Positions 9,404 to 59,750 of a DNA stretch of 64,000 bases are shown piece after piece. The notes under the pieces are model-generated. The model searched no databases. It was not told the origin of the DNA and saw only the letters and a list, made by a program, of their open reading frames with translations. The translations under genes were made by a program, and so were the position numbers. Position 1 is the first letter of the stretch. Each line of letters starts with the position of its first letter. The stretch is from Escherichia phage fp01. The stretch lies in sequence record NC_048731.1. One strand, written 5' to 3'.

Positions 9404-9886
9404 ATGGCTGTAGATAGTAGAGAGAAAGGTAAACGTGGTGAATATCAGGTAAGAGATATTCTACGTGAGCGTACAGGTCTTGAGTGGGAACGTGTTCCTG
9501 GCTCTGGTGCTTTTGGCCAGAGCCACGGACTAAAAGGTGACATCTACCTTCCACCACAAAGCGGACACATTAGTAGATACTGCTTCGAAGTTAAGTGGTA
9601 TAAAGATGATAATATATCAAGTAATTTATTTAATGTTGGTGAATCCACTCTAGAGAAGTGGTGGCAGCAGTGCTCACGTGAAGGTGAGCAAATGAACTCC
9701 AAACCTGCATTAATATTCAAAAAAGACAGAGGACAGTGGTTAATAGCTTTGGATAGCTCAGACCCGATGGTTGACAACTTAATGAGTCGTACCCATATGG
9801 TGTTAAATAAGAAAGACATGGAAATCGTAATTGGTTTATTTGAGCCGTGGCTACATCATGCATCTGTTGAGGACTTAATTAAATAA
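9404..9886 (+). CDS. hypothetical protein, possible PD-(D/E)xK-type nuclease
   Basis: Candidate 'GDIYL...FEVKWYK' D...ExK arrangement; placed between SbcC-like and flap endonuclease genes. Weak. Confidence 0.4.
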   Translation: MAVDSREKGKRGEYQVRDILRERTGLEWERVPGSGAFGQSHGLKGDIYLPPQSGHISRYCFEVKWYKDDNISSNLFNVGESTLEKWWQQCSREGEQMNSKPALIFKKDRGQWLIALDSSDPMVDNLMSRTHMVLNKKDMEIVIGLFEPWLHHASVEDLIK

Positions 9887-10761
9887 TGAGTAAATCCTGG
9901 GGAAAATTTATTGAAGAAGAGGAAGCTGAAATGGCTTCCCGTCGTAACCTAATGATTGTCGATGGAACTAACTTAGGCTTTCGCTTCAAGCATAACAATA
10001 GTAAAAAACCATTTGCCTCAAGTTATGTTTCCACTATTCAGTCTCTTGCAAAATCTTATTCTGCTAGAACTACAATAGTTTTAGGAGATAAGGGGAAGTC
10101 TGCATTCCGCTTAGAGCATTTACCTGAGTATAAGGGTAATCGAGATGAGAAATACTCTCAGCGTACGGAAGAGGAGAAAGCGTTAGATGAGCAGTTCTTC
10201 GAGTATTTGAAAGATGCTTTCGAATTATGTGAAACTACGTTCCCAACTTTCACTATTCGTGGTGTAGAAGCAGACGACATGGCAGCTTATATTGTTAAGC
10301 TCATCGGGCATCTATATGATCATATTTGGCTAATTTCTACCGATGGTGACTGGGATACTTTATTAACTGATAAAGTATCTCGCTTCTCTTTCACAACACG
10401 TCGTGAATATCATCTTCGTGATATGTATGAGCATCATAATGTTGACGATGTAGAGCAGTTTATCTCCCTGAAAGCAATTATGGGTGATTTAGGGGATAAT
10501 ATCCGAGGTGTTGAAGGTATTGGGGCAAAGCGTGGGTATAATATTATTCGTGAATTTGGTAACGTTCTGGATATTATTGATCAGCTTCCACTGCCTGGAA
10601 AACAGAAATATATACAGAATTTAAATGCTTCGGAAGAATTGCTTTATCGAAACCTAATTCTGGTTGATTTACCTACCTACTGTGTGGATGCTATTGCTGC
10701 TGTAGGTCAAGATGTATTAGATAAATTTACAAAAGATATTTTGGAGATTGCAGAACAATGA
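9886..10761 (+). CDS. flap endonuclease / 5'-3' exonuclease (T5 D15-like, 291 aa)
   Basis: N-terminus 'MSKSWGKFIEEEEAEMASRRNLMIVDGTNLGFRF' and overall sequence match what I recall of T5 5'-exonuclease; conserved acidic clusters 'VDGTN', 'GVEADD', 'STDGDWD'. Confidence 0.85.
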   Translation: MSKSWGKFIEEEEAEMASRRNLMIVDGTNLGFRFKHNNSKKPFASSYVSTIQSLAKSYSARTTIVLGDKGKSAFRLEHLPEYKGNRDEKYSQRTEEEKALDEQFFEYLKDAFELCETTFPTFTIRGVEADDMAAYIVKLIGHLYDHIWLISTDGDWDTLLTDKVSRFSFTTRREYHLRDMYEHHNVDDVEQFISLKAIMGDLGDNIRGVEGIGAKRGYNIIREFGNVLDIIDQLPLPGKQKYIQNLNASEELLYRNLILVDLPTYCVDAIAAVGQDVLDKFTKDILEIAEQ

Positions 10762-11204: not shown

Positions 11205-11228
11205 TCTACATATCAAATAAATAATAAA

Positions 11229-11260
11229 CCCCAGAGGGATATCCCTCTGGGGTTTTCTTT
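11229..11260. terminator. bidirectional rho-independent terminator between converging modules
   Basis: Hairpin 'CCCCAGAGGG-ATAT-CCCTCTGGGG' flanked by A-run upstream and 'TTTTCTTTTATT' downstream. Confidence 0.65.
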
Positions 11261-13750: not shown

Positions 13751-15654
13751 TTACCGTAAGCCATTAATTTGATCATTATTTAAAGCCCTATACCATACTC
13801 GGAAATTCTTAATATGATATACAAATTTAGAAGGGGTAGGAGATGGTGATGCACCTAACCTAGACGGAATACCTGTCAAACTCACGGGAGTACTAGTAGA
13901 TTTAGCAGTTTTACCATTAAAGAAATTACTAATCTCATTCCCTGTTATTTTTTGAGCATAGGTCATAGGAGGTAGACTTTCTATATCTGGAATAGCTAAG
14001 GTTGGCCCTGTACTAGATCTATATGTTCTTATAGTGGCATTATCAGCGCTATCACAGCGGCAGATAATGTCATACTTAGAACCTCTTACTTGCATAACTT
14101 CTACATAACTAGTATAAGGTCGTACTTTACAATTAAATTCAAAAGATACTGTGCGCTCAAAGTAGTCCGCCAGGGTTCTATAGCCGGCATTATCTGGTAT
14201 ACACCACCATTCATCTGCTGTTCTAGTAGTGGTGGTATCAGTGCTATTACGGATGTAAGAAGTTGGAGCTATGCCTTCCTCAACCTGTATACCCCAAATG
14301 TAGAAACCAGAAACACCATCCCCCTGGTAGACAGTAGTATTGGTATTTTTAGCCATCTGGAGTCTAAATATAGTGCTTCGACTTTCAGTGGCTGCAAAAG
14401 AAACCCAAATTCTATATATACCTCCAGTTAATCTCTCATACCCCCCTCTAATATTACTAGCAGAACCACTTGTAGCAACAGTTTCATTTTTAATATCAAA
14501 AAACATACCAACAGTTGTACCGGAAGCTACACGTAGATATACTAAACGGTTAGCGGTATCATCTTTAACATAAGCAGAATAGCAATAAAAAGTATCAGCA
14601 GTCAAAGATATCCATTTATCGTTGCAGTAATGCTCGCCGTCATTGGTATTCTCGGTAAACTTAGTCATCAACATTTCGCCAGTCGGGCACGCCGAAGCAT
14701 TAGGAGTTGTAATAACTAGACTACCTCCAGTAATTGCTTCTGAATTAGTATATAAATTAGTGCACTGAGACTCCATTAATAAACCTTGCTTTTCAAATCT
14801 AGGTTCATTAATATCTGCAAAACACATTTTACCACTTTTATCTATATAACTGGCGGTAGTTGAGCGAGTAAAATTTGCAGATTTTGTTGGCAATTCCAGA
14901 GTTACATCATTAATTGTTGCTAAATCGTAGGGGGCCATACCAGATAATAATCTCATATCATCAGTTAAAGGTACCCAAACATCCGGATAAGGGACAGGTT
15001 CATACATAATAATACTAGCAGCAGAAGCAGCGGCGGCAGCTTCAGAAGCTTTAGCATTAATTTCAGAAGCTTTAGCGTTAGTCTCTGAAGCTTTAGCATT
15101 AGTCTCAGAAGNNNNNNNNNNNNNNNNNNNNNNNNNNNNNNNNNNNNNNNNNTTTTACTTGCTAATGCATTAGTTTCGCTAGTAGCAGCATTAGTTTCCG
15201 AGGTTTTAGCTTTGGTTTCACTAGATTTTGCATTAGTTTCTGATGCTTTTGCATTAGTCTCGGATGTTTTAGCCTTAGTTTCACTAGCTTTCGCATTAGT
15301 CTCAGATACTTTAGCTGCTGCGGCTGATGCTGCAGATCTATCCGCTGATGCAGCAGATTGAGTAGCAGATGTAGCGGACTGAGTGGCAGAGGCTTCAGAA
15401 GCTCCAGCAGAAATAGCAGCTTCCTGTTCAGAATCCTTAGCATTAAGTTCTGAAGTCTTAGCAGCTATCTCAGAAGCTTTTGCAGCTGCAGCAGATTTAG
15501 CCGTAGCCTCAATAGAGGATACTAATTCACTTGCAGTAATAGAGCTAATAGAATTACCTAGAGTTACAGTATATCTAGGAAATTTACTAGCAGTAGCTTT
15601 AGTATCATCAATATTTAATATCTGTTGTACAATAATCTTAGTAGTTACTGCCAT
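13751..15654 (-). CDS. L-shaped tail fibre proximal protein (interrupted by assembly gap; true length unknown)
   Basis: Reading upstream of the Met at 15007 in the same frame stays open through the 21-nt repeats to the gap; beyond the gap the N-terminal part starts at 15654. Track ORFs 13751..15007 and 14965..15654 are therefore one gene. Confidence 0.55.
15040..15310 (-). repeat. tandem 21-nt repeats encoding 7-aa units (SETNAKA-like)
   Basis: At least 10 copies of 'GCATTAGT(C/T)TC(A/G)GA(A/T)GCTTTA'-like units on the plus strand, encoding 'ASETNAKASETKAKTSETNA...'. Confidence 0.8.
15112..15152. other. assembly gap (41 N)
   Basis: Run of n inside the tandem-repeat region; length is not a multiple of 3, so the downstream frame in the track is artefactual. 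Confidence 0.95.
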
Positions 15655-27208: not shown

Positions 27209-28618
27209 TTAGCCACCAGAACTAGTAACTGTAATGCTCTTAGTACCTTCTACACCAGAACCATCTTTAGCAACAGCTTTAACAGTAACCTCTCCAGTCT
27301 TAGTAGTATCCGCAGTTAATAGACCAGATTCTGGATCAATTGTAGCTGCATCACCACTAGAAATAGACCAAGTTACAGCACTATTAGTAGCGTCAGGCGG
27401 AGTTACTTCAACAGACATCTGTAAAGTATTGCTATTCTCCACTGAAGTGACATTACCAGCAGATTTAACTGTGATTGATTCAACTAGTTTTGGTGGAGTT
27501 TTAGCGCCATCTCCTGTAGCAATCAGATTAGCCACAGTGGTTTTAGTATACTTGTTAGAGAAACCAAGATAACCCTCATCACCCGTATCCAAATCTGTAG
27601 GGATAGCTTTAAACTCTACTGAAGTACCAAGTACATCATCAGTCTCAATAGTAGGAATGTTAACATGCGCCTGTTTAGCAACTAACACAGCTGCCGGACG
27701 TTCATCATCGTATTCACCACCAAGGATAAGTGCAATCTCAAACTTGTTAACTACCTTAAGAGTTTTAATTAGATCTTTATATAGCTCCATAGATCCTAGA
27801 GCTTTATCGTTAAGGTAAGCTGTCAGAGAACCAGTTAGTTCAAATGCGCCAGTAAATGAACCGATCGGAATATTTACACGGGACATAATATTCGGGGTTA
27901 GATACGTGATGTTATTATTAATGGTGAAAGTACCACCAGTAATAGGGATATCATATGCCTTATCAGAATCCATATCCTTAATTTTCAGGATAGTCAATTT
28001 GTTCTTGATATAAGAACTCTGAATAGTCATATAAGTTTCATCATCAATACCTACCTCATCTGGATCAAATGGTTGCGCATCCAGAGGAATAAGCTGATTA
28101 CCATTACCAGACCAAGTTACACGACCAATATCCTCAATATCAACGTTAACTTCTGCCTGGTTGATCTGGCAAGAGTCGATGTAACTCCATGCTTTGTCAG
28201 TCAGGATGTAGATATGCAGCATTGCCAGTTCGTGGTACGCGTTATCTTTAAAGTTAACCATAAAATTGGTTTCGTTATTATGTGCTCCTGTATCACCTTC
28301 TAGGTTAAGAGCTTTACCACTAGAAAGAGCATGCCATAACATATAGTCAGGGACAATCTGTTTGTTAGTAGTTTTATCTTTATATGGCAGGATATAAGTA
28401 GAGAAACTCCACTCAGCCGCGTTTAAAGAGTCGTTAAAACGTTTAGAACCACGAGTTGGACGCGGACCAGCTTCATTAACAGTAATATCTGTTGAGTTAC
28501 TGTCCTGACCCCAAGAAATATCATCCTGAACTAGAATCTCTTGCGTGTTGGTCTTATCATGACCAGTCTTAACCGTAGACACGAAGATTCGAGTATTACG
28601 TAATAGTTGTAAAGACAT
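27209..28618 (-). CDS. major tail tube protein with C-terminal Ig-like domain (T5 pb6-like)
   Basis: 469 aa; C-terminal ~90 aa 'ITVKSAGNVTSVENSNTLQMSVEVTPPDATNSAVTWSISSGDAATIDPESGLLTA...' is BIG2/Ig-like. Confidence 0.7.
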   Translation of the reverse strand: MSLQLLRNTRIFVSTVKTGHDKTNTQEILVQDDISWGQDSNSTDITVNEAGPRPTRGSKRFNDSLNAAEWSFSTYILPYKDKTTNKQIVPDYMLWHALSSGKALNLEGDTGAHNNETNFMVNFKDNAYHELAMLHIYILTDKAWSYIDSCQINQAEVNVDIEDIGRVTWSGNGNQLIPLDAQPFDPDEVGIDDETYMTIQSSYIKNKLTILKIKDMDSDKAYDIPITGGTFTINNNITYLTPNIMSRVNIPIGSFTGAFELTGSLTAYLNDKALGSMELYKDLIKTLKVVNKFEIALILGGEYDDERPAAVLVAKQAHVNIPTIETDDVLGTSVEFKAIPTDLDTGDEGYLGFSNKYTKTTVANLIATGDGAKTPPKLVESITVKSAGNVTSVENSNTLQMSVEVTPPDATNSAVTWSISSGDAATIDPESGLLTADTTKTGEVTVKAVAKDGSGVEGTKSITVTSSGG

Positions 28619-39486: not shown

Positions 39487-40221
39487 TTACGCAACTTTTA
39501 ATTTCTCAATATATTGTTGCGGGCTGCAACTATATTCTGCGCGTTCTTCCTCGGTCATACTTTCCCAACATAATTTCAAACGATCGGCTAGGAACTGATA
39601 ATCATTATCATCCTCGAGGGATTCATCAATAAAGGTTCCGCCTATCAATGCCACGCCGATTGATAGAATATCATTAACGGCTTGCGCATCTAGCGTTTTA
39701 AATCCATATGACGCAGCCGCTGATAATACACCTTTATGATCATCAATCATTGTAAAATCAGCGTTCGGATATAGCTGTTTAAATAATTCAAAGTAATAAC
39801 TTTTGTATACTGCGTCCTTGCTGTGGTATATCTCGCTAACCTTATCAGCCTCAAAATATTTATGCAGTGTATCGCGGGAAAATACACGGATATTACTATC
39901 ACCACGCCCGCGCAATCCTTGTTTGCGCAAATAATAATAATCCGACTTGCTCATCAGCCGAGCGGTGCAAATAATGTTTAAAGTATTTGAGTCATTCATA
40001 CATTGGCGCATATATTCCACCAAAGGTAATAAGGTGTCTTGCATTATTAAATCATGTTTACACGCTTCATTTTTATACTTATTTAAATTTAAATTCCCGT
40101 CGCTATCAAAGCAAGGCGCTACACGATGGAAAGAATTAATGATAGTGCCGTCCAGATCCCAAATCATGACGCGGGAAATATGCGGGAAATTACGGGAAAT
40201 ATTCATAATAGCTTTATTCAT
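39487..40221 (-). CDS. dmp: HAD-superfamily 5'-deoxyribonucleotidase (T5 Dmp-like)
   Basis: HAD motif I 'IWDLDGTI'; 244 aa; sits downstream of the A1-like gene in the GC-richer island. Confidence 0.6.
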   Translation of the reverse strand: MNKAIMNISRNFPHISRVMIWDLDGTIINSFHRVAPCFDSDGNLNLNKYKNEACKHDLIMQDTLLPLVEYMRQCMNDSNTLNIICTARLMSKSDYYYLRKQGLRGRGDSNIRVFSRDTLHKYFEADKVSEIYHSKDAVYKSYYFELFKQLYPNADFTMIDDHKGVLSAAASYGFKTLDAQAVNDILSIGVALIGGTFIDESLEDDNDYQFLADRLKLCWESMTEEERAEYSCSPQQYIEKLKVA

Positions 40222-40300
40222 TTGTTACGTTCTCCATTAAAGGGATGTAGTTTATCCAGCACTGCCCGCTATTTATAAGCGGGCAATAATAAATCAACTA

Positions 40301-40693
40301 TCAAAGACCATAAGCCAAAGCATCGGCGATAAAACTAATATCTTCGCCGGATATATGGGAACGAATACCCGCGCAGATATACACCTTTGCGCTTGATAGC
40401 TGATCATCAAAGCAAGCCGGACAAGGCGCGACAACTGCAAACGCAAGGCCAGCTTTCACGGCGTCAATGATAATCGTTTCTTGTTTCACCGTATCAACAT
40501 AAACGCCTGCGGCCTTGATGTAACTACTTGCGCGGCCTTGCGTATAGGCGAAAGTCGTGATCTGTAGCGCCTCATTAAATTCGATTAAATCATCAACAAC
40601 GTGACCGGCCTCAACGTGATACCGCTCACCATTAGAATAAACCAGAACGATTGAGGATTGAGCGCGATCGAATGGAATATTTTGCTTTTTCAT
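40301..40693 (-). CDS. hypothetical protein with HxE...PCxxC motif
   Basis: 'YHVEAGH' and 'APCPACF'; start 'MKKQNIPF' with leader 'TTAAATTAATTGGAGTTT'. Confidence 0.5.
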   Translation of the reverse strand: MKKQNIPFDRAQSSIVLVYSNGERYHVEAGHVVDDLIEFNEALQITTFAYTQGRASSYIKAAGVYVDTVKQETIIIDAVKAGLAFAVVAPCPACFDDQLSSAKVYICAGIRSHISGEDISFIADALAYGL

Positions 40694-40759
40694 ATTTATA
40701 AACTCCAATTAATTTAATAAGGGGCATAAGCTGGAAGTATTTCCAGCTTATAAATTTAA

Positions 40760-42424
40760 TTATGCGAAAAATTTGCCGTTTTTAAAGTCAATCAAAGTGC
40801 GTTGCCCGTTGGCGTATGTAATTAAATGCGTTTGCGTCCAGCTTGACGCGCCAACGTTGTAACCCATATCCAGACTACCAGCTACGCCAGCGGTATAAAC
40901 GCCGCCATAAATGCTAGCGGTGTGAGTGTGTCCGGTGTTTAACTTGCCCAATTTCTTAAACTGCTTAGGATTGCCACGGCTGCCGTTTATGCCGTTATGA
41001 CCGTGTACACCACACTCAATGCCTGCAATTTTGAATGATTGATCAGTCGTTAGGAAAATCGCGTTAAACTCGCAACCTGCGACGCTACGCAGCGCATAAT
41101 CTAGCACGTTGAAAGTATCGTCATGATTACCGATTGCCGCGTAAATTGCAGCATTAAGGCGGTGATATAGTTCCGCATTGGCTGGGTCGTCTTTAATGTT
41201 AGCATTACGATCATCAAGCCAACGAGATAGCGCCAAATCGTGATTCGATTCAACAATGATCGTTTGACTAAAATCACGCTCCATCGATTCCAGCACGCGC
41301 CCGGTATCGATAAGATCATCAATAACCTTATCCCGTCCGGCTGCATACTGTTTCGCTAGAAATACACCGGAAGCGCGGTTATGATGATTGCGCGATGTAA
41401 AATCATGCACGTCATGGATAAACTGATATTTAGGCTTGAGAATATCAAGCAAACTATTGTCGCCAGCCCATGACGCTGCGGCGCACTCCTCATCTAATTT
41501 TTCGGCGTGAATGTCACCATACTGTAAGCCTAAAACATGCCCCGATGTTTCATAGCATCCGGCGGGAGTAGCGCAAACATTCAGATCATAAAACACCCCG
41601 CTTTCATCCATTGTTTCAAGCTGGCGAACAAAAAATTCACCGTCCTCATCGAACTCGACAATCAGCGCACCAAAGTTATGAAGTGCTTCCGCTTTCTGTC
41701 CTGCTTTCTGCTGAATGTAGTTTTTGAGTGTTGCCGTTCCGGTTGAATACATGCGGCGCACCACTTCACCTTTTAAAGCTGGGACGCTTTCGGCGGTGAT
41801 TTTAGCGTGACCAATTGCCAGACCCTCGATATTTAAAGCCGTTGCAGTTTCTGCAAATCCAGAAAGCGGATAATCTGCGGTTGGCAAAACATTAATTTCA
41901 GCCATGAAAGCAAAACGGCGGTTATTTAAAAACACGTTTTTGCTGCAAATATACTTATCAAAAGCGGAATCATATTTGATTCCGTCAGCACCTTCCCCAT
42001 TTTGGAATCCGTTTTTATTATAAATATACTTAGAAACAAGCAAATCAGCGCCGATAAATTTGGCATATTGTTCAAGCGAGGACAAAAAGTTTTTATGCGG
42101 GAAAGTATTATTCTGAATCGATGTAATAATAAAGCGTTTGCCTTGTTTTACTTCCCACTGTTCCACGGTACTAGAAACAATTCCAGCCGCTTCGGGGCGC
42201 TCATCGTTTTTAATGGCTTTTACCGCTTTCGCCGCTTTCGGTTTAGCTGGTTTATTTGCTTCCAGCCAGTCGCAGATAGCGGTTGAATGTTTTGCAGTAT
42301 CGTAAACCGCTTTTGATATATCGTCGCAGACCTCCAATTTAGTAGCGCGCAGACGTTTACCATAGAAATTAAAGTCAGCGGCTAGTTTCAGGATAGCGGT
42401 TTGTTTTTCTGCGGAAAAAATCAT
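40760..42424 (-). CDS. A1: pre-early A1-like protein with metallophosphatase (Mre11-like) motifs
   Basis: ~554 aa from 'MIFSAEK'; 'GDIHAE', 'ESNHD', 'GHNGINGSRG', 'TGHTHTA' phosphoesterase motifs; size and position match T5 A1 as recalled. Confidence 0.65.
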   Translation of the reverse strand: MIFSAEKQTAILKLAADFNFYGKRLRATKLEVCDDISKAVYDTAKHSTAICDWLEANKPAKPKAAKAVKAIKNDERPEAAGIVSSTVEQWEVKQGKRFIITSIQNNTFPHKNFLSSLEQYAKFIGADLLVSKYIYNKNGFQNGEGADGIKYDSAFDKYICSKNVFLNNRRFAFMAEINVLPTADYPLSGFAETATALNIEGLAIGHAKITAESVPALKGEVVRRMYSTGTATLKNYIQQKAGQKAEALHNFGALIVEFDEDGEFFVRQLETMDESGVFYDLNVCATPAGCYETSGHVLGLQYGDIHAEKLDEECAAASWAGDNSLLDILKPKYQFIHDVHDFTSRNHHNRASGVFLAKQYAAGRDKVIDDLIDTGRVLESMERDFSQTIIVESNHDLALSRWLDDRNANIKDDPANAELYHRLNAAIYAAIGNHDDTFNVLDYALRSVAGCEFNAIFLTTDQSFKIAGIECGVHGHNGINGSRGNPKQFKKLGKLNTGHTHTASIYGGVYTAGVAGSLDMGYNVGASSWTQTHLITYANGQRTLIDFKNGKFFA

Positions 42425-42518
42425 AGTAATAAACTCCATTAAAGGGATAAAAAACGTTTGTTATTGGCAATATTGCCAGATATAACGCCTTGAATAATAG
42501 GCGTTATAATTTGCAACA

Positions 42519-42716
42519 TTAATTTAAAGGCATAAGGCTAGAACTAACACCACAAACAACGGCGGCAATAAAACAAATCAGACCTAAACGCTTCGCTAAC
42601 TTAGATTTGCGTTTAAAATAATACGAATCTAAGTCATTTTGAAAATATGCGAACAATAACGAGGCCGCCATAATAAATAGTCCTAGAATCAGCGATTCAG
42701 TAGGGTAAAAGATCAT
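42519..42716 (-). CDS. small two-TM membrane protein (65 aa)
   Basis: 'MIFYPTESLILGLFIMAASLLFAYF...LICFIAAVVCGV'; leader 'CCCTTTAACTGGAG'. Confidence 0.4.
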   Translation of the reverse strand: MIFYPTESLILGLFIMAASLLFAYFQNDLDSYYFKRKSKLAKRLGLICFIAAVVCGVSSSLMPLN

Positions 42717-42745
42717 TTTAATAACTCCAGTTAAAGGGAAATTAT

Positions 42746-42765
42746 AGTGGGGAATAATCCCCACT
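42746..42765. promoter_or_regulatory. perfect inverted repeat between A2-like and small membrane genes
   Basis: 'AGTGGGGA-ATAA-TCCCCACT'. Confidence 0.35.
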
Positions 42766-42773
42766 AGTTAAAT

Positions 42774-43181
42774 TTATTCACCTGCGGCCTGTTTTACTTC
42801 ATCGGCAACGCCTAACAACTGCGCCACGGCGTCCAGCGTTTCCAGTTTCGCGCTTTCAAGGCTTGCCAGATCATCGGCGTCTTTGATAATGCCGGAATCA
42901 ATAGCGTGTTTTGCAATTACTCGCACATAATGAGCCTTGCGGATTGAACTGCCGCCGCCAACTTTGCGCGGCTTATCGCTTTTTTGATAGGCTTTCGCGC
43001 TGGTCAATTTTGAGCGAACGGATACGGGAGAAGTCGCGCCCACTGCCTTTGCAATCTCTTTCAGGCCGTCGCTATTTGCAAATTCTAAACCGTTTTCGTT
43101 GATTAACTGCTGATACAGGGTAACAGCTTTTTGGGTGTTGTCTTCATTCCAAGTGAATTTTGCGGTTTTTGCGTTAGTCAT
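42774..43181 (-). CDS. hypothetical pre-early protein (A2-sized, possibly DNA-binding)
   Basis: 135 aa, Lys/Ala-rich; upstream of the A1-like gene in the same operon; leader 'TTAAATTAATTGGAGTTT'. Identity with T5 A2 is a guess from order and size. Confidence 0.3.
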   Translation of the reverse strand: MTNAKTAKFTWNEDNTQKAVTLYQQLINENGLEFANSDGLKEIAKAVGATSPVSVRSKLTSAKAYQKSDKPRKVGGGSSIRKAHYVRVIAKHAIDSGIIKDADDLASLESAKLETLDAVAQLLGVADEVKQAAGE

Positions 43182-45152: not shown

Positions 45153-45717
45153 TGTTATAGTTTCCTTATGTTATTAATTTAATCTCTATTATATTATATC
45201 AAAACAATTAGCAGACTAGCTAATGAGTTTTTCAGGTTTAATTAGCAGACTCATAATCACTCTAAAAACCTATTAGCCAACTAACTATATTTTATTATAT
45301 AATAACTGTATAAATTAGTTAGTGAGAACCACTATCATTTAAGTTACCCACAGCCTTATACATTTTGTAAAATAATTTGACACAATAGGCGGCGATATGA
45401 GGGCTTTTACACAGACTTATCCACAGGTTATTCCACTGTATAAATATACAGGGTAAAAAGGTAGTGTTAACAACTGCAATCAATTTTAAGCGGCCTAAAA
45501 CGCTTTCTAACGAGCTAAACGCTGCGGGGTAGTATTAAAGTAAAGCCTTCACCCGTCGGCCTGGTGGCTTCGCCGTGTCTTGCTCTTTACTACACCGCTG
45601 CGCGGTTAGCATAAAACTAGGTGTTAGGCAAGGAAAATAAAAAAGTAAAATAATCTTTGCCTATGCTAGAAAATTACCCTTATCATTCACTCACCGATTA
45701 ACGAGGGAGGCCAACAA

Positions 45718-46704
45718 ATGCGGCTATATAAACCAGATAACGCAACCGTCTTAAAAGGTGCGCTGCGTAACCTGCTGGACGGTAGCAGAACAACCAGCAT
45801 TAAACATTTTGTTTTCAATATTGAAACTATTCATCAAAACTTTTTTGATGATTATGATGCTTACAATATGAATAGTTTTCTACCGTTATATAAGCAAGGG
45901 GCAACGCTTGTTTTATATAATCAGGATTATCAATTACTTACTAGTAGGGGGCCGGATACTGATTTCATAGTCGTAAAAGGCAACACAGTAAAAGCCTATG
46001 ATACTGGGGCGGGCTTAGAAGTTTTTTCAATAGAAAACTATGAAGCCAATGATAATGATCTTTATGACGTAGAAAATTTTCTTGATTCATTTTGGCGTTA
46101 TTTATCAGTTGGCTGGAATCGGTCGGATTCTGATGGGTATCGTTTTGCGGCTATAATGGCCTTTGATGATAACGGTAATTTTTTGCTACCGTCGGAGTTA
46201 TATAATCGGGTATATGAAGGCGATATTGTTGACGCCGGATTTTCTTTCGAAAGGGAAGAAAGTATTGACAGTATAGAAAAACATGCTGTAAATTCTAACA
46301 CTAAAAGCGTTCACACTCAAACTACTGAAAACAAAGGAAAAAATGCCATGACCAAGATCGCTAACATCGTTGCCGCCAATAAGTCTGCCGTTGTAAACGC
46401 TGCAAAACTGGAAGCGGGTAAAATTGCACTGACTCAAATTACGAAAGTAGCGGCTAAAAAAGCACCGTTCATGATCAAAGGCTATATTGATACGCCGATT
46501 GGTCGTGTAGTGATCGCTAACCTGCTGAGTGTAGCGGTTGACCAGTACGCCCCGAGTAACCAGAAAGCGAAAGCGGTAGCAGGGGCGGCTATGGAAGCGG
46601 CGATGTTGGAAATGGTGCAAAGTTTTAACATCGCTGAGATGATTGATGAAATGGTAAAAGGTATCGATATTTCTACTTTCACCACTAACACCGAAAGCGA
46701 GTAA
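45718..46704 (+). CDS. hypothetical protein, acidic N-terminal half and Ala/Lys-rich C-terminal half
   Basis: 328 aa; RBS 'GAGGGAGG'; first gene of a tightly packed plus-strand operon. Confidence 0.6.
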   Translation: MRLYKPDNATVLKGALRNLLDGSRTTSIKHFVFNIETIHQNFFDDYDAYNMNSFLPLYKQGATLVLYNQDYQLLTSRGPDTDFIVVKGNTVKAYDTGAGLEVFSIENYEANDNDLYDVENFLDSFWRYLSVGWNRSDSDGYRFAAIMAFDDNGNFLLPSELYNRVYEGDIVDAGFSFEREESIDSIEKHAVNSNTKSVHTQTTENKGKNAMTKIANIVAANKSAVVNAAKLEAGKIALTQITKVAAKKAPFMIKGYIDTPIGRVVIANLLSVAVDQYAPSNQKAKAVAGAAMEAAMLEMVQSFNIAEMIDEMVKGIDISTFTTNTESE

Positions 46705-46768
46705 TAATAACTAGCGGGGTAACAATCCCCGCTTTACTATTCCCTTGTTAATTAATAGGAGGCTAATT

Positions 46769-47086
46769 ATGCAGCTTAACAAAAAAATGCTAGAACAATT
46801 GCGGGGTAGAATCCAGCGCGATGACTACCCTCACATTAATTATTCTTCGGAAGTAGTAGACACTGCCGATTCATGGAAAAAAGCAGGTTACCCCTATGTA
46901 TGGCAACATGCAGAAAGCGCAAACGGATTCCATGCCTTTCGTGATTTAGGTCATGGAAAACTTTGCGTTTTTAAAGGTGAGTTATTAATAGGAGTATCAG
47001 AATCGGAAGTAATCACGGATGAGGTTGTATTCTTAGACAATGACCAATATGAAACAGGCAATCAGTTTTATTTTCCCGCTAATTAA
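46769..47086 (+). CDS. hypothetical protein (105 aa)
   Basis: Start 'MQLNKKM' preceded by 'TTAATTAATAGGAGGCTAATT'. Confidence 0.55.
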   Translation: MQLNKKMLEQLRGRIQRDDYPHINYSSEVVDTADSWKKAGYPYVWQHAESANGFHAFRDLGHGKLCVFKGELLIGVSESEVITDEVVFLDNDQYETGNQFYFPAN

Positions 47087-47100
47087 TAGGAGGCTAATTA

Positions 47101-47595
47101 ATGGCTGAAGAAAAATATGGCTTCTCACTGGGAGAAGTGAGCACGGCAAAACATGATATGATCATTTTAGTCGATTGTCATACTGGCTATTGCGGGGAAG
47201 GGAATACCGAGGAATATTTTGTTCCTGCTGGTACGGATCTAGACGCTTTCGCTCAGGAAATGGCTATTGATAATGCTTCTCGTTTTGGTAGCGATGGCTA
47301 TGAAGACGAGGAAACTGGCGAATGGTATGAAAATGAAAACGTATATGCGAGCCTTTATCATTATCAATTAAGTAAATCCGGCACATATGTAAACGGCGGC
47401 GATCCTATTAATTCCGTCATGAAATTAATTATTAAACACGGTGGCGTCGAGATAATTGATAACAAAGCGGTAATATATGCAAACCGATTAAAACAGCTTG
47501 TTTATATCCCTGATAGTACCCGATGGGATGAATACGCCGTTTTGCATGACGAATTGAAACGATGTTTCAATGTTGAAGCCTTACAAGTAGTCTAA
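47101..47595 (+). CDS. hypothetical acidic protein (164 aa)
   Basis: Preceded by the same 'TTAATTAATAGGAGGCTAATTA' cassette; Asp/Glu/Tyr-rich. Confidence 0.6.
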   Translation: MAEEKYGFSLGEVSTAKHDMIILVDCHTGYCGEGNTEEYFVPAGTDLDAFAQEMAIDNASRFGSDGYEDEETGEWYENENVYASLYHYQLSKSGTYVNGGDPINSVMKLIIKHGGVEIIDNKAVIYANRLKQLVYIPDSTRWDEYAVLHDELKRCFNVEALQVV

Positions 47596-47701
47596 TGTAA
47601 AGTTTTGTAAAGGTCGCCTTTTATGGTGGCCTTTTTTGCTATAATGCCTTTACACCGTTTGAGGACGGTTGAAAATTTTCCCAAAAATTTGGAGGCTTAA
47701 A

Positions 47702-47932
47702 ATGGTTGCTTATTCTTCTTCTGACGCTCTTTTCACTGGGAAAGGCTGGGTATCTAATCGCTGGATTATTCAAGAAATGGTGCAAGAATACGGCATTGCT
47801 AAAACTTACACTACCATTCAGGCGCTTTATGATAATGATCAAATCGATCAGCAAACGGCGGGCTTTTTGCTGGATACCCTGAAAGCGGAACACTGTACCA
47901 AAAAACAAGCGGCAAAAATTGTTTTAATGTAA
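47702..47932 (+). CDS. hypothetical protein (76 aa)
   Basis: ATG at 47702 with 'GGAGG' RBS; preceded by a 'TATAAT' element at 47639-47644. Confidence 0.45.
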   Translation: MVAYSSSDALFTGKGWVSNRWIIQEMVQEYGIAKTYTTIQALYDNDQIDQQTAGFLLDTLKAEHCTKKQAAKIVLM

Positions 47933-47981
47933 TTAATAACGGGGCGTTACTTTCGCCCCACTAACTAGGGGAGTAGTACAA

Positions 47982-48164
47982 ATGGTTATTTTTCGAGCTG
48001 TTCTAGCAGGTATCTTGGGCGCTATTTTGACCCTTTTCGCCACCGCGTATGGTATTCAGGATTCCTATTGCGGTTTGGTAAATACAAAACCAATGGTTAC
48101 TATTGGCGCTGGCATTGCTGTATTTTCTTATCTGCTAGGCTGCATGACTAGTAAAGGAGAATAA
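47982..48164 (+). CDS. small membrane protein (60 aa, two TM)
   Basis: Hydrophobic 'VIFRAVLAGILGAILTLFATAYG' and 'TIGAGIAVFSYLLGC'. Confidence 0.45.
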   Translation: MVIFRAVLAGILGAILTLFATAYGIQDSYCGLVNTKPMVTIGAGIAVFSYLLGCMTSKGE

Positions 48165-48166
48165 AA

Positions 48167-48379
48167 ATGATCCGCAACGTTTCTCTTGCACGTTCGAAAG
48201 GCTTTAAGCTGGTGGATGCTAACACGTTCGAGCGTCTTGATTGTAAAATCGAATATGTAGCACGTAACAAAAATGCCTTTCGTGTTACCGAGAAAAAATT
48301 TGACAAGCGCGGCAACGTGATCGCTGAAACGGTTAAACACTTTGCCACCTTTTACGCTGCGTTTCGTGGGGTGTTATAA
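48167..48379 (+). CDS. hypothetical basic protein (70 aa)
   Basis: 'AAGGAG' RBS; coupled to neighbours. Confidence 0.45.
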   Translation: MIRNVSLARSKGFKLVDANTFERLDCKIEYVARNKNAFRVTEKKFDKRGNVIAETVKHFATFYAAFRGVL

Positions 48380-48380
48380 A

Positions 48381-48725
48381 ATGGTTATTTATGAAGGCAA
48401 TCGTTTTGTTGCTAATTGCCGCCCGGCATTGTTAGCAAACTATTTAAATCAGCTTTCGCCAGCTTATAAGGGCGTTATTAATATTTATGAGGGCAAGGCA
48501 CATTATAAAATTAATGCGGTCGTTGCCCGTGAACTAGCATTTCAATTTTTGACCTTTGCATCTTGTGACGTTCAAGTTATGGGTGAAGCATTAATTGCGG
48601 AAAATGAAGAGGATTTTATTAATATTTTCCGCAAGGTATGCACCGAGCGCCTGATAATGAAAGGCGCGTATATTCAATCCACTGCGGATAGTATTGAAAC
48701 AGCGTTTCGAAAGGTGGCACAATGA
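48381..48725 (+). CDS. hypothetical protein (114 aa)
   Basis: ATG at 48381 directly after upstream stop. Confidence 0.5.
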   Translation: MVIYEGNRFVANCRPALLANYLNQLSPAYKGVINIYEGKAHYKINAVVARELAFQFLTFASCDVQVMGEALIAENEEDFINIFRKVCTERLIMKGAYIQSTADSIETAFRKVAQ

Positions 48726-48880
48726 AAAAGTTTTTAATAGCTGGCATGTTTCCTTTGTTGCCTTATGTAATTTGCTGGGCTTTATATGCTCATGGTGCTA
48801 GTGTTCCCGGTGTGGCTGCATTTGGTGTATCAGCGGGCTTTCTAGCCGGACTACTAGCAAGCGTATATTTACGCAAGTAA
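48722..48880 (+). CDS. small membrane protein (52 aa)
   Basis: 'MKKFLIAGMFPLLPYVICWALYAHGASVPGVAAFGVSAGFLAGLLASVYLRK'; ATGA overlap with previous gene. Confidence 0.4.
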   Translation: MKKFLIAGMFPLLPYVICWALYAHGASVPGVAAFGVSAGFLAGLLASVYLRK

Positions 48881-48899
48881 TTAACAACGGAGCGTTATT

Positions 48900-49094
48900 A
48901 TGAGCAATAAAATTATTGTAACCAAAACCAGCACAACGGTTGATGTTTTTTACGTGCCCGATACGCCGGAAAACCGACAAGCGGTCGAGCGTGGGGAATA
49001 TGATAAAGTGATTTATGATCACGATGGTTATTATCAGTATTTGGTGGATTCATATGGGGAGGAGGAAAAGATCACGCACCGACTACCGGACTAA
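48900..49094 (+). CDS. hypothetical acidic protein (64 aa)
   Basis: Last ORF before the repeat landscape. Confidence 0.45.
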   Translation: MSNKIIVTKTSTTVDVFYVPDTPENRQAVERGEYDKVIYDHDGYYQYLVDSYGEEEKITHRLPD

Positions 49095-49133
49095 TAATCA
49101 CGGGGCGCAACTATCAGGAAGTGCCCCCAATTC

Positions 49134-49158
49134 TCAAATGAGAATGATTCTCATTTGA
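49134..49158. repeat. perfect 25-nt palindrome
   Basis: 'TCAAATGAGAAT-G-ATTCTCATTTGA'; motif 'AAATGAGAATGATTCT' recurs at ~49650 and ~49700. Confidence 0.85.
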
Positions 49159-49360
49159 CCGCGCCCGCGATGGTTAGCCTGCTAATGGTTAGGGTGTTAC
49201 GTGTCGCCTTGTGTGATCGTTAGCGAGCTAACTAATTTTCAAGCCTCCTCCAATTTTGCCCTTGTTTTAGTATCCCCACCAAAATTAAACGCGTTAGAAT
49301 GCGTTTGAGGGCGTTTTAGCGGTATATTAGAATTATTCACTGCGTAGGAATACTGTATAT

Positions 49361-49460
49361 TTATCCAGTAGGATAAGCTGTGGATAAGTCTGTTGATAAC
49401 GCTTCAAAACGGCTAGGATTTTGTCAAGTCAAATCGTGCTGTTGATAAGTCTGGGGATAA
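49361..49460. promoter_or_regulatory. cluster of DnaA-box-like 9-mers
   Basis: 'TGTGGATAA' (perfect complement of TTATCCACA) plus 'TGTTGATAA' x2, 'TGGGGATAA', 'TTATCCAGT' within ~100 bp. Confidence 0.6.
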
Positions 49461-49485
49461 CTTAAATAATAGTGTTTCTCACTTC

Positions 49486-49740
49486 CGTTCTTAAATGCGA
49501 ATCATTATCATTTGCATTCCACTTCCTGAATAAGAATCATTCCACTATCTAAACGATAATCATTCCACTTCCTGAATAATAATCATTCCACTATCTAAAT
49601 AAGAATCATTCCACTATCTAAACGATAATCATTCCACTTTTTAAATGAGATTGATTCTCATTCCACTTTCTAAATGCGAATTATTATCATTCGCATTCCG
49701 CTTTTTAAATGAGAATGATTCTTATTATCATTCGTATTTA
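49486..49740. repeat. tandem iteron-like ~23-bp repeats
   Basis: About 8 head-to-tail units of 'CATTCCACT(A/T)(T/C)CT(A/G)AA(T/C)(A/G)A(T/G)AAT' with variants. Confidence 0.8.
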
Positions 49741-49762
49741 GCGCAGAGCAATTGCTCTGCGC
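49741..49762. repeat. perfect 22-nt palindrome followed by T-run
   Basis: 'GCGCAGAGCA-ATT-GCTCTGCGC' then 'TTTTGTG'; could act as a terminator or protein site. Confidence 0.8.
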
Positions 49763-49765
49763 TTT

Positions 49766-50369
49766 TGTGCAAAACCGACATTGCTCCACGGGTGTTACGT
49801 GCGGGCGTATGTGCAAATCCGACAGGATTTTTGGTAGTGTGCAAATCCGACCCGAAAAATTTTTATAGTGTGCGAATCCGACAATGAATTTTTCCAAAAA
49901 CTCCAGCAATCCGATGCTGCGCATCAATCCTGTGGAATTAACTAGAATATGTGCAAATCCGACATGAGTTTATTTGTGCGAATCCGACAAGATTTTTGTG
50001 ACTTCGATTGGAGGGTGTGTGATTGTGTGGGTTTGGGGAGAAGTTGAGAGAGCGAGGGAAAATTAGGGGAGAAGCTAGAGAGGCGCATGTTTGGTGCGGG
50101 GGCACCCGATTTGCGGGGATTTTGGGGAAGAGTTGAGAAGATTTGGGTTAATTTGAGATTAGTGGAGATAAAGTAAAATTTTATTAGCTAAATGGGGCAA
50201 AATAGCTTGACAAGTGAAAATTCTTGTGGCTCTAAAAACTCAGGCAATCATGGGCCTTCGGCCCGAAATAATGCTGCCATTTTCAAGAGATTATGTGTCC
50301 ATGAAAACTTAGGCAATTGTGCAAATCCGACCATAAATTTCTAGAAACACAATGTGCAAATCCGACAGT
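49766..50369 (+). repeat. eight dispersed direct copies of a 14-nt motif
   Basis: 'GTGC(A/G)AA(A/T)CCGAC(A/C)' at ~49767, 49811, 49840, 49871, 49950, 49977, 50320, 50353, all on the same strand. Confidence 0.8.
50000..50200 (+). repeat. purine-rich G-tract region with 3 copies of 'GGGGAGAAG(T/C)TGAGAG'-like unit
   Basis: Strong G+A skew on plus strand; G-runs 'GGG','GGGG','GGGGG' spaced by short linkers. Confidence 0.7.
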
Positions 50370-50914
50370 AAAATCCAGAAATGTGTTTTCAAAAAATGTT
50401 GTCTAGAAATAACCGCCCTCCCCATAACCGCCCTGTATTAAACCGCCTAGTATATGTTCCTAGAAACTTAGGAGAACCGCCCACTAGAAGTGTGATATCT
50501 CGTGAGTATTTCGTGAGAACTCTGGAGTTTCTAGGAAAGTGTTGTGCCATCCTAGCAGATGAGCGGCAACAGGTGTATCATCTTGAATGTAAATTATGTG
50601 GTCAAAAGTTTTACTTTTATTTTAAATATAAGATCCCCCAGGGTTCTCATATAGAGCTTTGCCCCCGCCAGAAGGTCTCGTGATGTTTCTAGCAATTTAT
50701 ATTAAATTACTTATTAACTTGTCCTGTCGCTCCGTATCCTCCGCTACAAGTTAGTAATTTTAAATTACTGAACCACCACACCTTCTGTGTGGCAACTCTA
50801 AATGGTTAATTCTATTAACTCATAGAGTTATGATAACATACATTTAGCTATCTGTCAACGAGAGTTTGTATTTGAGTCTCGGTACAGGTATTGTGCACCG
50901 AGACTTGCAGGATC

Positions 50915-51799
50915 TTACAGTAACTCTTGGTATGCTTTTTGATACGCCTCAGTGTCCGTAGGTGTACCTTTTGCAATGGCTATTAATTCATCTGTAATCT
51001 GAATATTCGTATTATAACGTGAGTGGAACTCGTCAGGAATTTCTAGATACCTATTGATGAATGCTGCAGCAAGCGGTGAAGCTACACCCATTTCTAGAAC
51101 CCATCCAACATGGTTTTCAAATTTCAGATAAGGAGAATCAGATGGGATTGGTGGGGTTACATCAATTTTCTCTGGTTCTTTTTCTGGAAGCAACGGATTA
51201 TTATATAATGCTTCATCTGGAAGCACAGATTTACGCTCTTTAAATATATAAGTTTCTAGATCAGATGCTTTAGATCCTGAGTATACAGCAAAGATGCTAG
51301 CTTTACCTTGTGATGCTCTAACTGGTAGATAACTAGTAGGATAGCTTCTTAATGCATCATGGAATGGACTTCCTGAATATTTGTACGTATCCCCATAGAG
51401 ATCGTCAATATTCATTCGTTCATCTTCAAAAATGTGAAATGACTTAAATGGTGGAATGGTGAAGTATTCCATCTGTAATCCATAAACTAAGAAACGATGT
51501 GCATATGCACTGATTTTTAAGACTGTGAATGCTTTTTCACCTTCTTTATGGGCATTGCCCTTTGAAGTAACTGGGTAACGTTTACAAAACATCTCTACTA
51601 GACGTTTCTCATTAAGACTAAGGGTGGAGTACAGTCGTCCACTTAACCCTATAAGTGCATCGAACATAAATGCTAGTTTATCTTTTTCTTCTTGGGTTAG
51701 TTCAGGAAACGGAAGTACTTTAGCATTAGGAACACTATTATTCTCCTTTGCCTTTACTTTGCCAGCATTTTGTCTTAGTTTATCTTTAAAGTTATACAT
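50915..51799 (-). CDS. hypothetical early protein (294 aa)
   Basis: Long ORF, first gene of the minus-strand early block after the repeat region. Confidence 0.55.
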   Translation of the reverse strand: MYNFKDKLRQNAGKVKAKENNSVPNAKVLPFPELTQEEKDKLAFMFDALIGLSGRLYSTLSLNEKRLVEMFCKRYPVTSKGNAHKEGEKAFTVLKISAYAHRFLVYGLQMEYFTIPPFKSFHIFEDERMNIDDLYGDTYKYSGSPFHDALRSYPTSYLPVRASQGKASIFAVYSGSKASDLETYIFKERKSVLPDEALYNNPLLPEKEPEKIDVTPPIPSDSPYLKFENHVGWVLEMGVASPLAAAFINRYLEIPDEFHSRYNTNIQITDELIAIAKGTPTDTEAYQKAYQELL

Positions 51800-59672: not shown

Positions 59673-59750
59673 GGCTTTCTCCTATCTTCAAAAAATTATT
59701 AAAGCCCCCTTTGCCTAAAAAGGCGGGAATATTCCCGCCTCAGTTATTAA

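Follow-up and report, generated by a model that had tools for sequence, protein, structure and literature searches.

The halt of T5 DNA transfer after about 8% of the genome, and its later restart, have been an open question since the 1960s. The direct repeats and palindromes of the T5 region concerned have reportedly been annotated since the work of Heusterspreute in 1987 and Wang in 2005. Record AY587007 of T5 carries palindromes C and D, inverted repeats D′ and C′, direct repeat B, copies 1–4 of direct repeat C (DRC) with palindromes E–I (palE–I), palindrome J (palJ) over nick 1, and nine copies of direct repeat D (DRD), and record AY692264 names the homologous stretch the "injection stop signal" (iss). 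A preprint gave this stretch the name Repeat Region 3, compared it across 25 phages and proposed that membrane-bound DnaA holds the DNA there (Davison 2020); DnaA is the sole host factor proposed to date for the T5 stop. According to a 2023 paper on phage BF23, experimental studies on the region's function are lacking, and the exact T5 stop site within it has not been experimentally located. Here we describe the corresponding repeat array, with its palindromes (49134–49762), in a 64,000-nucleotide stretch of Escherichia phage fp01 (NC_048731.1), referred to below as the window and numbered from its first letter, and conclude from sequence comparisons that the array dyads share the specificity of Fur operators. 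What is new is this identification of the units with Fur operators, together with their occurrence in other phage families; the searchable literature yielded no paper that connects Fur with T5-like phages, and outside it lie Davison 2015, Wang 2005 and Heusterspreute 1987, any of which could mention Fur or LexA boxes.

That the array is the DRC/palE–I part of the T5-type Repeat Region 3, or iss region, is virtually certain. The window and T5 are 84% identical over 2.8 kb and align element by element: palindrome D (palD); direct repeat B (DRB) with inverted repeats D′ and C′ (IRD′ and IRC′); DRC copies 1–4; palE–J; nick 1; and DRD. T5 position 15 aligns to 39378 of the window, and the T5 terminal-repeat end (10139) to 50232. 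The position is likewise shared, at the inner end of the terminal repeat past the rightward pre-early operon: rightward pre-early open reading frames (ORFs) span 45718–49094, the next long ORFs beyond the array begin at 50915, and the array lies inside an untranslated stretch of about 1.8 kb between the rightward pre-early and the leftward early genes, with the transcription units on both sides pointing towards it. A 1.8-kb query around the array matched 451 phage records, the best matches all being T5-like phages (Demerecviridae), and in annotated relatives the matched stretch is the inner end of the "left terminal repeat"; among 72,556 plasmids the same query found no match. The elements follow one another in like order in T5, chee24 and 15 other T5-like genomes (Tequintavirus, Epseptimavirus and Klebsiella T5-likes). 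Far from being absent from relatives, the array was found in all 15 of these enterobacterial genomes, each time between the second DnaA-box pair and palJ. It varies there from 3 to 9 units and from 176 to 372 bp, with three long units in the Klebsiella phages; what is fixed is the dyad AAATG(A/C)(G/A)AAT n ATT(C/A)(T/G)CATT, often with a second overlapping copy 6 bp on, and the core AAATGCGAATCATTCTCATTCGCATT. Copy number is thus free while dyad positions are fixed, as expected of protein-binding sites. The window differs from T5 and chee24 in a 23-bp block about 75 bp longer, and from T5 in an outlying perfect dyad (49134–49158), which is present at the same position in chee24 and most relatives and absent from T5. 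From left to right, the region contains:

49102–49127, plus strand: GC-rich stem-loop (GGGGCGC...GTGCCCC), 8 nt past the stop codon of the last rightward pre-early ORF (48900–49094).
49134–49158, no strand assigned: perfect 25-nt palindrome TCAAATGAGAAT-G-ATTCTCATTTGA, whose core (49137–49155) is AATGAGAATGATTCTCATT, a dyad of Fur-operator type and the best-scoring site in the window.
49219–49232, plus strand: short hairpin (GTTAGC-GA-GCTAAC, then TAATTTT) at the equivalent of T5 palindrome C, which is a putative terminator.
49351–49370, no strand assigned: LexA-box-like palindrome TACTGTATATTTATCCAGTA (T5 palD), with 2 mismatches to the 20-mer SOS-box consensus.
49379–49460, no strand assigned: two DnaA-box pairs, TGTGGATAA-gtc-TGTTGATAA (49379–49399) and TGTTGATAA-gtc-TGGGGATAA (49440–49460), equivalent to T5 IRD′-spacer-IRC′ / DRB.
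49480–49514, no strand assigned: degenerate first unit with a strong dyad at 49494–49512 and its partner 6 bp on at 49500–49518; equivalent to T5 DRC copy 1 / palE.
49515–49629, no strand assigned: five 23-bp tandem units CATTCCACT(T/A)(T/C)CT(G/A)AA(T/C)..AAT, with weak half-sites only (8–13 bits on the phage-derived matrix described below).
49630–49739, no strand assigned: three long units of 29, 35 and 46 nt; equivalent to T5 DRC copies 3–4 / palG–I.
49740–49767, plus strand: perfect 24-nt GC-rich palindrome forming a terminator-like hairpin, then TTTG; aligns to T5 palJ.
49765–50366, plus strand: eight copies of TGTGCRAAWCCGAC (T5 DRD), straddling the equivalent of the T5 terminal-repeat end (50232).

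The repeats and palindromes are real and far above chance, though the feature was already known in T5-like phages. The original prediction, made from the letters of the window, spoke of about eight 23-bp units. Eight head-to-tail units are indeed obtained when the array is parsed on CATTCC(A/G)CT, next to the one degenerate unit at 49480–49514, and Tandem Repeats Finder agrees; only five, however, measure 23 bp (starting at 49515, 49538, 49561, 49584 and 49607), and they are followed by units of 29 nt (from 49630), 35 nt (from 49659) and 46 nt (from 49694, up to the palindrome). Tandem Repeats Finder reported 49515–49646 with a period of 23 (5.7 copies, 80% matches, score 166) and also a 46-bp super-unit (2.8 copies, 87% matches), which arises from the alternation of the five 23-bp units between two subtypes. 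The 19-bp dyad AATGMGAATNATTCKCATT, allowing at most 3 mismatches, occurs six times in the window, always within 49137–49726 (0.24 in shuffles). The strong dyads of the long units lie at 49644–49662, at 49673–49691 (with 49679–49697) and at 49708–49726 (with 49714–49732); several strong dyads thus form overlapping pairs offset by 6 bp, and their spacing is 29 or 35 bp.

Only four palindromes in the 64 kb are perfect over arms of 10 nt or more, against 0–2 (mean 0.2) in thirty first-order Markov simulations. Both palindromes previously reported are among them: that at 49134–49158 is a perfect 25-mer, as claimed, and that given as 49741–49762 is perfect and really 24 nt long (49740–49763, AGCGCAGAGCAATTGCTCTGCGCT). 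The half-site of the first also recurs in the last units, as AATGAGATTGATTCTCATT at 49644 and AATGAGAATGATTCTTATT at 49708, each with one base different. Two further parts of the description did not hold. The palindromes were said to share a AAATGAGAATGATTCT core, but this 16-mer is present only at 49136 and 49707, that is, in the first palindrome and the last repeat unit, and is missing from the second palindrome, an unrelated GC-rich hairpin. Nor is the first palindrome adjacent to the array; the 320 bp between hold the LexA-box-like palindrome and the two DnaA-box pairs. In a fold of 49095–49165 as RNA (−25.6 kcal/mol, z = −3.9), the stem-loop at 49102–49127 and a hairpin of the first palindrome are both predicted. 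The other two long palindromes of the window, AAACCCCAGAGGGATATCCCTCTGGGGTTT (30 nt, 11226–11255) and AGGCGGGAATATTCCCGCCT (20 nt, 59721–59740), are probably terminators.

Turning to the specificity of the dyads, their layout is the 7-1-7 arrangement of the Fur box, TGAgAAT n ATTcTCA against TGATAAT n ATTATCA. Fur-site identity was tested with the classical 19-mer consensus GATAATGATAATCATTATC and, reciprocally, with a matrix derived from the phages. The segment 49100–49760 is the window's densest cluster of GATAATGATAATCATTATC matches, with 9 sites at 6 or fewer mismatches against 0.44 in simulations; the best, GAGAATGATTCTTATTATC at 49711, agrees at 16 of 19 positions, and the phage sites overall at 13–16 of 19. 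Pairs offset by 6 bp were found at 49491/49497 in the consensus scan and at 49494/49500, 49673/49679 and 49708/49714 in the matrix scan, and the same 6-bp offset between overlapping sites is seen in real Fur clusters (Chen et al. 2007). The weight matrix was built from 43 distinct phage 19-mers only and applied to 147 kb of E. coli K-12 in three 49-kb stretches. In the enterobactin stretch, its top seven matches all fell in the fepA–fes, fepD–entS and fepB–entC intergenic regions, which amount to about 730 of 49,001 bp; in the other two stretches, the top match was the fhuA promoter and the ryhB promoter, respectively. Known Fur operators are thus recognised reciprocally, with five Fur-controlled regions ranking first. 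A search of bacteria, restricted to one genome per species, placed the exact dyad AATGAGAATNATTCTCATT at at least 120 loci. Of the matches inspected, 79 of 81 are intergenic, and at least 11 of 20 adjoining genes serve iron or metal uptake in diverse bacteria, encoding a TonB-dependent receptor, FeoB, FTR1, Fe3+-type binding proteins, Peripla_BP_2, ZnuA, an ECF sigma factor and a multicopper oxidase. To our knowledge, the sites of CRP, ArgR, IHF, GalR, PurR and Zur do not fit the dyads in spacing or in key bases. Judged by these comparisons, it is probable that Fur binds the array specifically.

The strong dyads score 27–33 bits on the phage matrix (49137; 49494 with 49500; 49644; 49673 with 49679; 49708 with 49714), values that for phage dyads are circular in absolute terms. 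No other site exceeds 16.7 bits in the 64-kb window or 13.3 bits in T5 12–62 kb, and on the same scale the E. coli fhuA and fepA–fes operators reach 17.8 and 14.6 bits. With the Fur boxes of Enterobacteria (ryhB, fhuA, fepA–fes and fepB–entC), the array shares the recognition pattern, the overlapping sites offset by 6 bp and a 17-mer, AATCATTCTCATTCGCA, which the ryhB operator AATAATAATCATTCTCATTCGCACT and the family-wide phage core have in common. It differs from them in lying away from a promoter on the genome of a virulent phage, with Fur binding a prediction only, and in its extent of about 240 bp, over which five strong dyads and three overlapping partner sites are distributed at 29/35-bp intervals, interspersed with weak 23-bp half-site units. 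Moderate Fur-type sites (15–17 bits) occur at 45321–45339 (AGTGAGAACCACTATCATT) in the pre-early promoter region and at 39594–39612 and 47266–47284, of which one lies inside dmp and one inside a pre-early ORF; the 45321 site (15.8 bits) could also matter, because the fhuA and fepA–fes operators score comparably.

Arrays of the same kind are found beyond the T5-like phages. Weak BLAST matches led to Pectobacterium phage DU_PP_I (Vequintavirinae) and Klebsiella phage ZCKP1 (Stephanstirmvirinae), in which long noncoding regions hold 3–4 dyads at 29-bp spacing (1495–1620 and 1478–1595, respectively, in extract coordinates); no LexA or DnaA boxes were found near these two arrays. With the DU_PP_I array as query, array-like sequence was recovered from 401 phage records, including Vequintavirinae, Stephanstirmvirinae and Mydovirus, and among them many 131–151 kb myoviruses of Escherichia, Cronobacter, Pectobacterium, Enterobacter, Proteus and Klebsiella. 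The arrays of rV5-like (Vequintavirinae), phAPEC8-like (Stephanstirmvirinae) and Mydovirus phages resemble that of the window in having 3–4 copies of the same dyad at 29-bp spacing, a similar linker (CAACT...AAATG) and a noncoding context, whereas the phages themselves are unrelated, have contractile tails and carry no LexA, DnaA or DRD elements nearby. As far as we found, these arrays have not been described. It is conceivable, though we hold it only tentatively, that Fur-operator arrays with 29/35-bp spacing represent a shared, undescribed module by which T5-, rV5-, phAPEC8- and Mydo-like phages would deliberately load Fur, and that in the T5-like phages Fur, LexA and DnaA together would form the host component that holds the DNA at the stop.

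The LexA-box-like palindrome and the DnaA-box pairs lie to the left of the array. A second copy of the LexA box (CACTGTATAAATATACAGGG, 45434–45453) is situated in the divergent pre-early promoter region. In related T5-like loci the iss copy has 1 mismatch in 12 of 15 cases and 2 mismatches in 2 of 15, and Vibrio phage Quinn retains it as CTGTATATTTATACAG. Davison (2020) makes no mention of LexA, and the T5 record labels the iss copy merely "palindrome D"; the DnaA-box pairs, by contrast, have already been described for T5-like phages (Davison 2020).

To the right, the palJ-equivalent hairpin (−22.3 kcal/mol, z = −6.0) is followed on the plus strand by UUUUGUG; a simple terminator scanner did not list it, and a terminator is annotated at the homologous place in phage Lindwurm. 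The T5 "major single-stranded nick 1, 7.9%" maps to 49755–49762 (CTGCGC), and the calculated shear point of T5 first-step-transfer DNA (9618) maps to 49714, within the last dyad. The three annotated T5 major nick sites inspected (extract coordinates 9640–9690 of one extract and 10230–10280 and 27640–27690 of another) share CCCTGCGCT. T5 palJ differs from the palindrome of the window both in the sequence of its stem and in the nick motif, which is CCCTGCGCT in T5 and CTCTGCGCT in the window (49755–49763). The DRD copies beyond it are conserved as far as Vibrio phage Quinn, and their position suggests a role in defining or cutting the terminal-repeat end.

Taken as a whole, the best explanation of the region, to which we give about an even chance, is that the Fur-coated array serves as a nucleoprotein barrier or anchor. 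Host Fur dimers, already present in the cell, would coat 49490–49735 and the outlying site at 49137–49155. With the LexA box and the four DnaA boxes immediately to the left, about 400 bp would then be loaded with pre-existing host DNA-binding proteins, and this protein-loaded stretch would stand directly before the palJ hairpin, the nick and the end point of first-step transfer. There it could act as a barrier or anchor where first-step DNA meets second-step DNA and, more speculatively, stop read-through RNA polymerase from the rightward pre-early operon, DNA movement, or both, until the pre-early proteins A1 and A2 act. The barrier role taken by itself is tentative. Should the DRC/palE–I repeats be Fur operators, direct tests become possible with standard tools, and a second host factor is open to test through the conserved, near-consensus LexA box; occurrence of the array in unrelated phage families as well would point to a general, unrecognised link between virulent phages and the iron regulator of their hosts. 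If Fur does not bind, the finding amounts to a known T5-type repeat region in a new relative.

Several points weigh against such a Fur-coated barrier. It is not obvious how proteins on DNA already inside the cell would halt DNA still in the tail, and arrays of this kind are also carried by myoviruses for which two-step injection is not known. Fur binding is itself read from sequence, and the hexamers in the phages consistently read GAGAAT or GCGAAT instead of GATAAT, yet the fhuA and ryhB operators hold the same ATTCTC. Occupancy by Fur-Fe2+ should be lowest in iron-starved cells, which express most FhuA. The text of a genome-wide screen does not name fur among the T5 resistance determinants. 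Only weak promoter-like matches (9–10 of 12) lie in the array, no more than chance, whereas 303 of 363 bacterial Fur clusters overlap a promoter (Chen et al. 2007), unlike an array between convergent units. Finally, in the T5-like Vibrio phage Quinn (NC_055850), with an A2 of about 42% identity, the DRD repeats, three TTATCCACA boxes and the LexA box are retained, but the Fur-like array is replaced by six 16-bp TCTATCCATCTAGRCT units in tandem (about 3290–3390, extract coordinates), with DRD-type repeats to one side of them and the DnaA and LexA boxes to the other. Whatever this position does, it can therefore do without Fur; speculatively, the motif was exchanged because the identity of the bound protein is secondary. 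An array at this position is conserved and its specificity is not, which fits a role for any tightly bound protein and equally co-variation with a phage protein. As a separate matter, a promoter in the array was considered and rejected, as it has weak consensus matches only and a possible start at about 49738 would yield only the hairpin.

Fur might also bind the array for purposes unrelated to DNA transfer, as a general device that senses iron status by repressing or insulating nearby transcription, or that titrates Fur, with multiplying phage genomes soaking it up and derepressing the supply of iron for phage enzymes such as ribonucleotide reductase. This reading, which we consider unlikely, would accommodate the 29-bp-spaced arrays of Vequintavirinae, Stephanstirmvirinae and other 131–151 kb phages without adjacent LexA or DnaA boxes, as well as the Vibrio T5-like phage without a Fur-like array. 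Multicopy Fur boxes do titrate Fur, which is the basis of the FURTA assay, and T5 encodes class I and anaerobic ribonucleotide reductases. In the genome-wide screen, overexpression of FeoB or YdiE, which raises Fur-Fe2+, protected BL21 from T5, an effect its authors ascribe to fhuA repression. On the other hand, host DNA is broken down and host transcription silenced by T5 in a matter of minutes, and derepressing host genes would therefore bring little; there is no convincing promoter over the array, both flanking units point towards it, and neither the window nor T5 12–62 kb holds another strong Fur-type site for titration to relieve.

A phage-encoded dimeric protein is a less probable binder still. 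The array would on this account be a set of operators for such a protein, most obviously A2, which would bind the dyads cooperatively and might for example release the paused DNA, and the resemblance to Fur sites would be coincidence or mimicry. The original prediction pointed to a 135-aa protein encoded about 6 kb upstream; this is indeed the DNA-binding protein A2, though as binder of the array it is unsupported and partly contradicted. A2 and its companion A1, both required for second-step transfer, are encoded as follows:

42774–43181, minus strand: A2, 135-aa DNA-binding pre-early protein (phrog_1725 "DNA binding protein"; T5 synteny).
40760–42439, minus strand: A1, 559-aa pre-early protein (phrog_1745 "DNA transfer protein").

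As an essential DNA-binding pre-early protein needed for second-step transfer, A2 is a natural suspect. Its model, computed from 23 homologues (pLDDT 85), is all-helical, with an N-terminal bundle that has weak similarities to helix-turn-helix and Myb-like folds, an invariant basic linker (PRKVGG..RK.HYV) and a C-terminal helical domain. Quinn, in which a divergent A2 stands alongside a different tandem motif at the array position, fits co-variation of the two, and a Fur-like dyad (ACTGAGAATCACTCTCATT) lies 48 bp upstream of the Quinn A2 gene. Against this, Klebsiella T5-like phages have the same motif with an A2 only 65% identical; the phage-derived matrix recovers E. coli Fur operators selectively, which would be unexpected of a private phage specificity; A2 is structurally unlike Fur; and the dyad AATGMGAATNATTCKCATT was not found at the pre-early promoters. 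The possibility that A2 is itself a Fur-like protein was rejected (no Pfam match in a library scan, an all-helical model and no PDB match below E = 0.6). Equivalent arrays also occur in phage families, 131–151 kb myoviruses among them, that appear neither among the A2 tblastn matches listed nor in the organism counts. A2 homologues were found in 891 records, all of those among the matches listed having genomes of Demerecviridae size. In Cronobacter, 15 records have the array and at most 3 have A2 (matches listed and organism counts), and phages of Cronobacter, Erwinia and Enterobacter are too rare among the A2 matches listed to account for the array matches. From these matches, counts and genome sizes we infer that at least some array-bearing phage groups are without A2, which favours a host factor. 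Moreover, the first-step pause needs no new protein synthesis (Davison 2020), and newly made A2 therefore cannot be the stop factor, although it could act later on the array DNA as a release factor. Host Fur would thus be the better candidate binder, because the dyads have Fur specificity by sequence and arrays occur in phages of which at least some probably lack A2.

Marginally less probable again is that no sequence-specific protein is involved and that DNA structure (cruciforms, bends and the palJ nick) obstructs or retards passage of the DNA through the tail or pore and thereby sets the end of the first step. This is the classical reading of the iss region, which is unusually rich in perfect and near-perfect palindromes and AT-rich over the array (30% G+C against 38.6% for the whole window), and the T5 7.9% nick maps into its second palindrome. 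Yet unit number and length vary freely among close relatives around dyads whose positions are fixed, a pattern of protein recognition rather than of a fixed structure, and the conserved dyad positions coincide with those of Fur operators. With FhuA proteoliposomes there is no pause and ejection in vitro is complete (Davison 2020), which argues that DNA alone does not stop the transfer.

A replication origin, with the tandem units as iterons and the DnaA boxes helping to open the AT-rich stretch, is very improbable despite the superficial likeness of DnaA-box pairs, direct repeats and AT-rich DNA to oriC or plasmid origins: T5 origins map near the genome centre, and replication genes are silent while only first-step DNA is in the cell (Davison 2020), the annotated T5 origin-binding protein gene lies at 59.6 kb with no initiator gene adjoining the array, and the strong units are dyad-symmetric operators, not directional iterons. 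A plasmid origin was rejected on the same dyad units, the lack of an initiator gene nearby and the lack of any match among the plasmids searched. The array does recall iterons (P1, F, R6K, pSC101) and centromere-like arrays (sopC, parC) in its noncoding head-to-tail repeats of about 20–45 bp next to DnaA boxes and in presumably cooperative binding, but it is without adjacent initiator or partition genes, its dyads have the specificity of a host regulator, and it belongs to a virulent phage with origins elsewhere. Of the earlier proposal of an operator or iteron array for a dimeric protein, the operator part is thus supported by dyad-symmetric sites and their 6-bp-offset pairs, and the iteron part fails on the missing initiator, the convergent units and the location of the T5 origins.

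With regard to the wider setting, dmp, A1 and A2 are encoded on the minus strand (39487–43181). Late-gene DNA runs unbroken into the equivalent of the T5 left terminus (about 39364), and the sequence then leaves the repeat (50232) for the early genes, from which it follows that the source assembly either contains the terminal repeat as a single collapsed copy or is circularly permuted. As in T5, the pre-early promoter region contains an inserted HNH endonuclease ORF (PF13392; 44634–45152, minus strand), and the insert that carries it is missing from most T5-like phages (Davison 2020). Small ORFs over the array (49645–49887, plus strand; 49670–49927, minus strand) were rejected as genes, as relatives leave the stretch unannotated or annotate differing hypothetical ORFs there, and as the unit number varies by non-multiples of 3. 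An Rfam scan of 48800–51000 found no structured RNA, its only two matches (mir-4922 and NmsRb) being sub-threshold and due to chance. Elsewhere in the window, overlapping tandem repeats at 15042–15390, with periods of 21, 42 and 63 bp, all multiples of three, probably belong to a repetitive stretch of coding sequence in a late structural gene.

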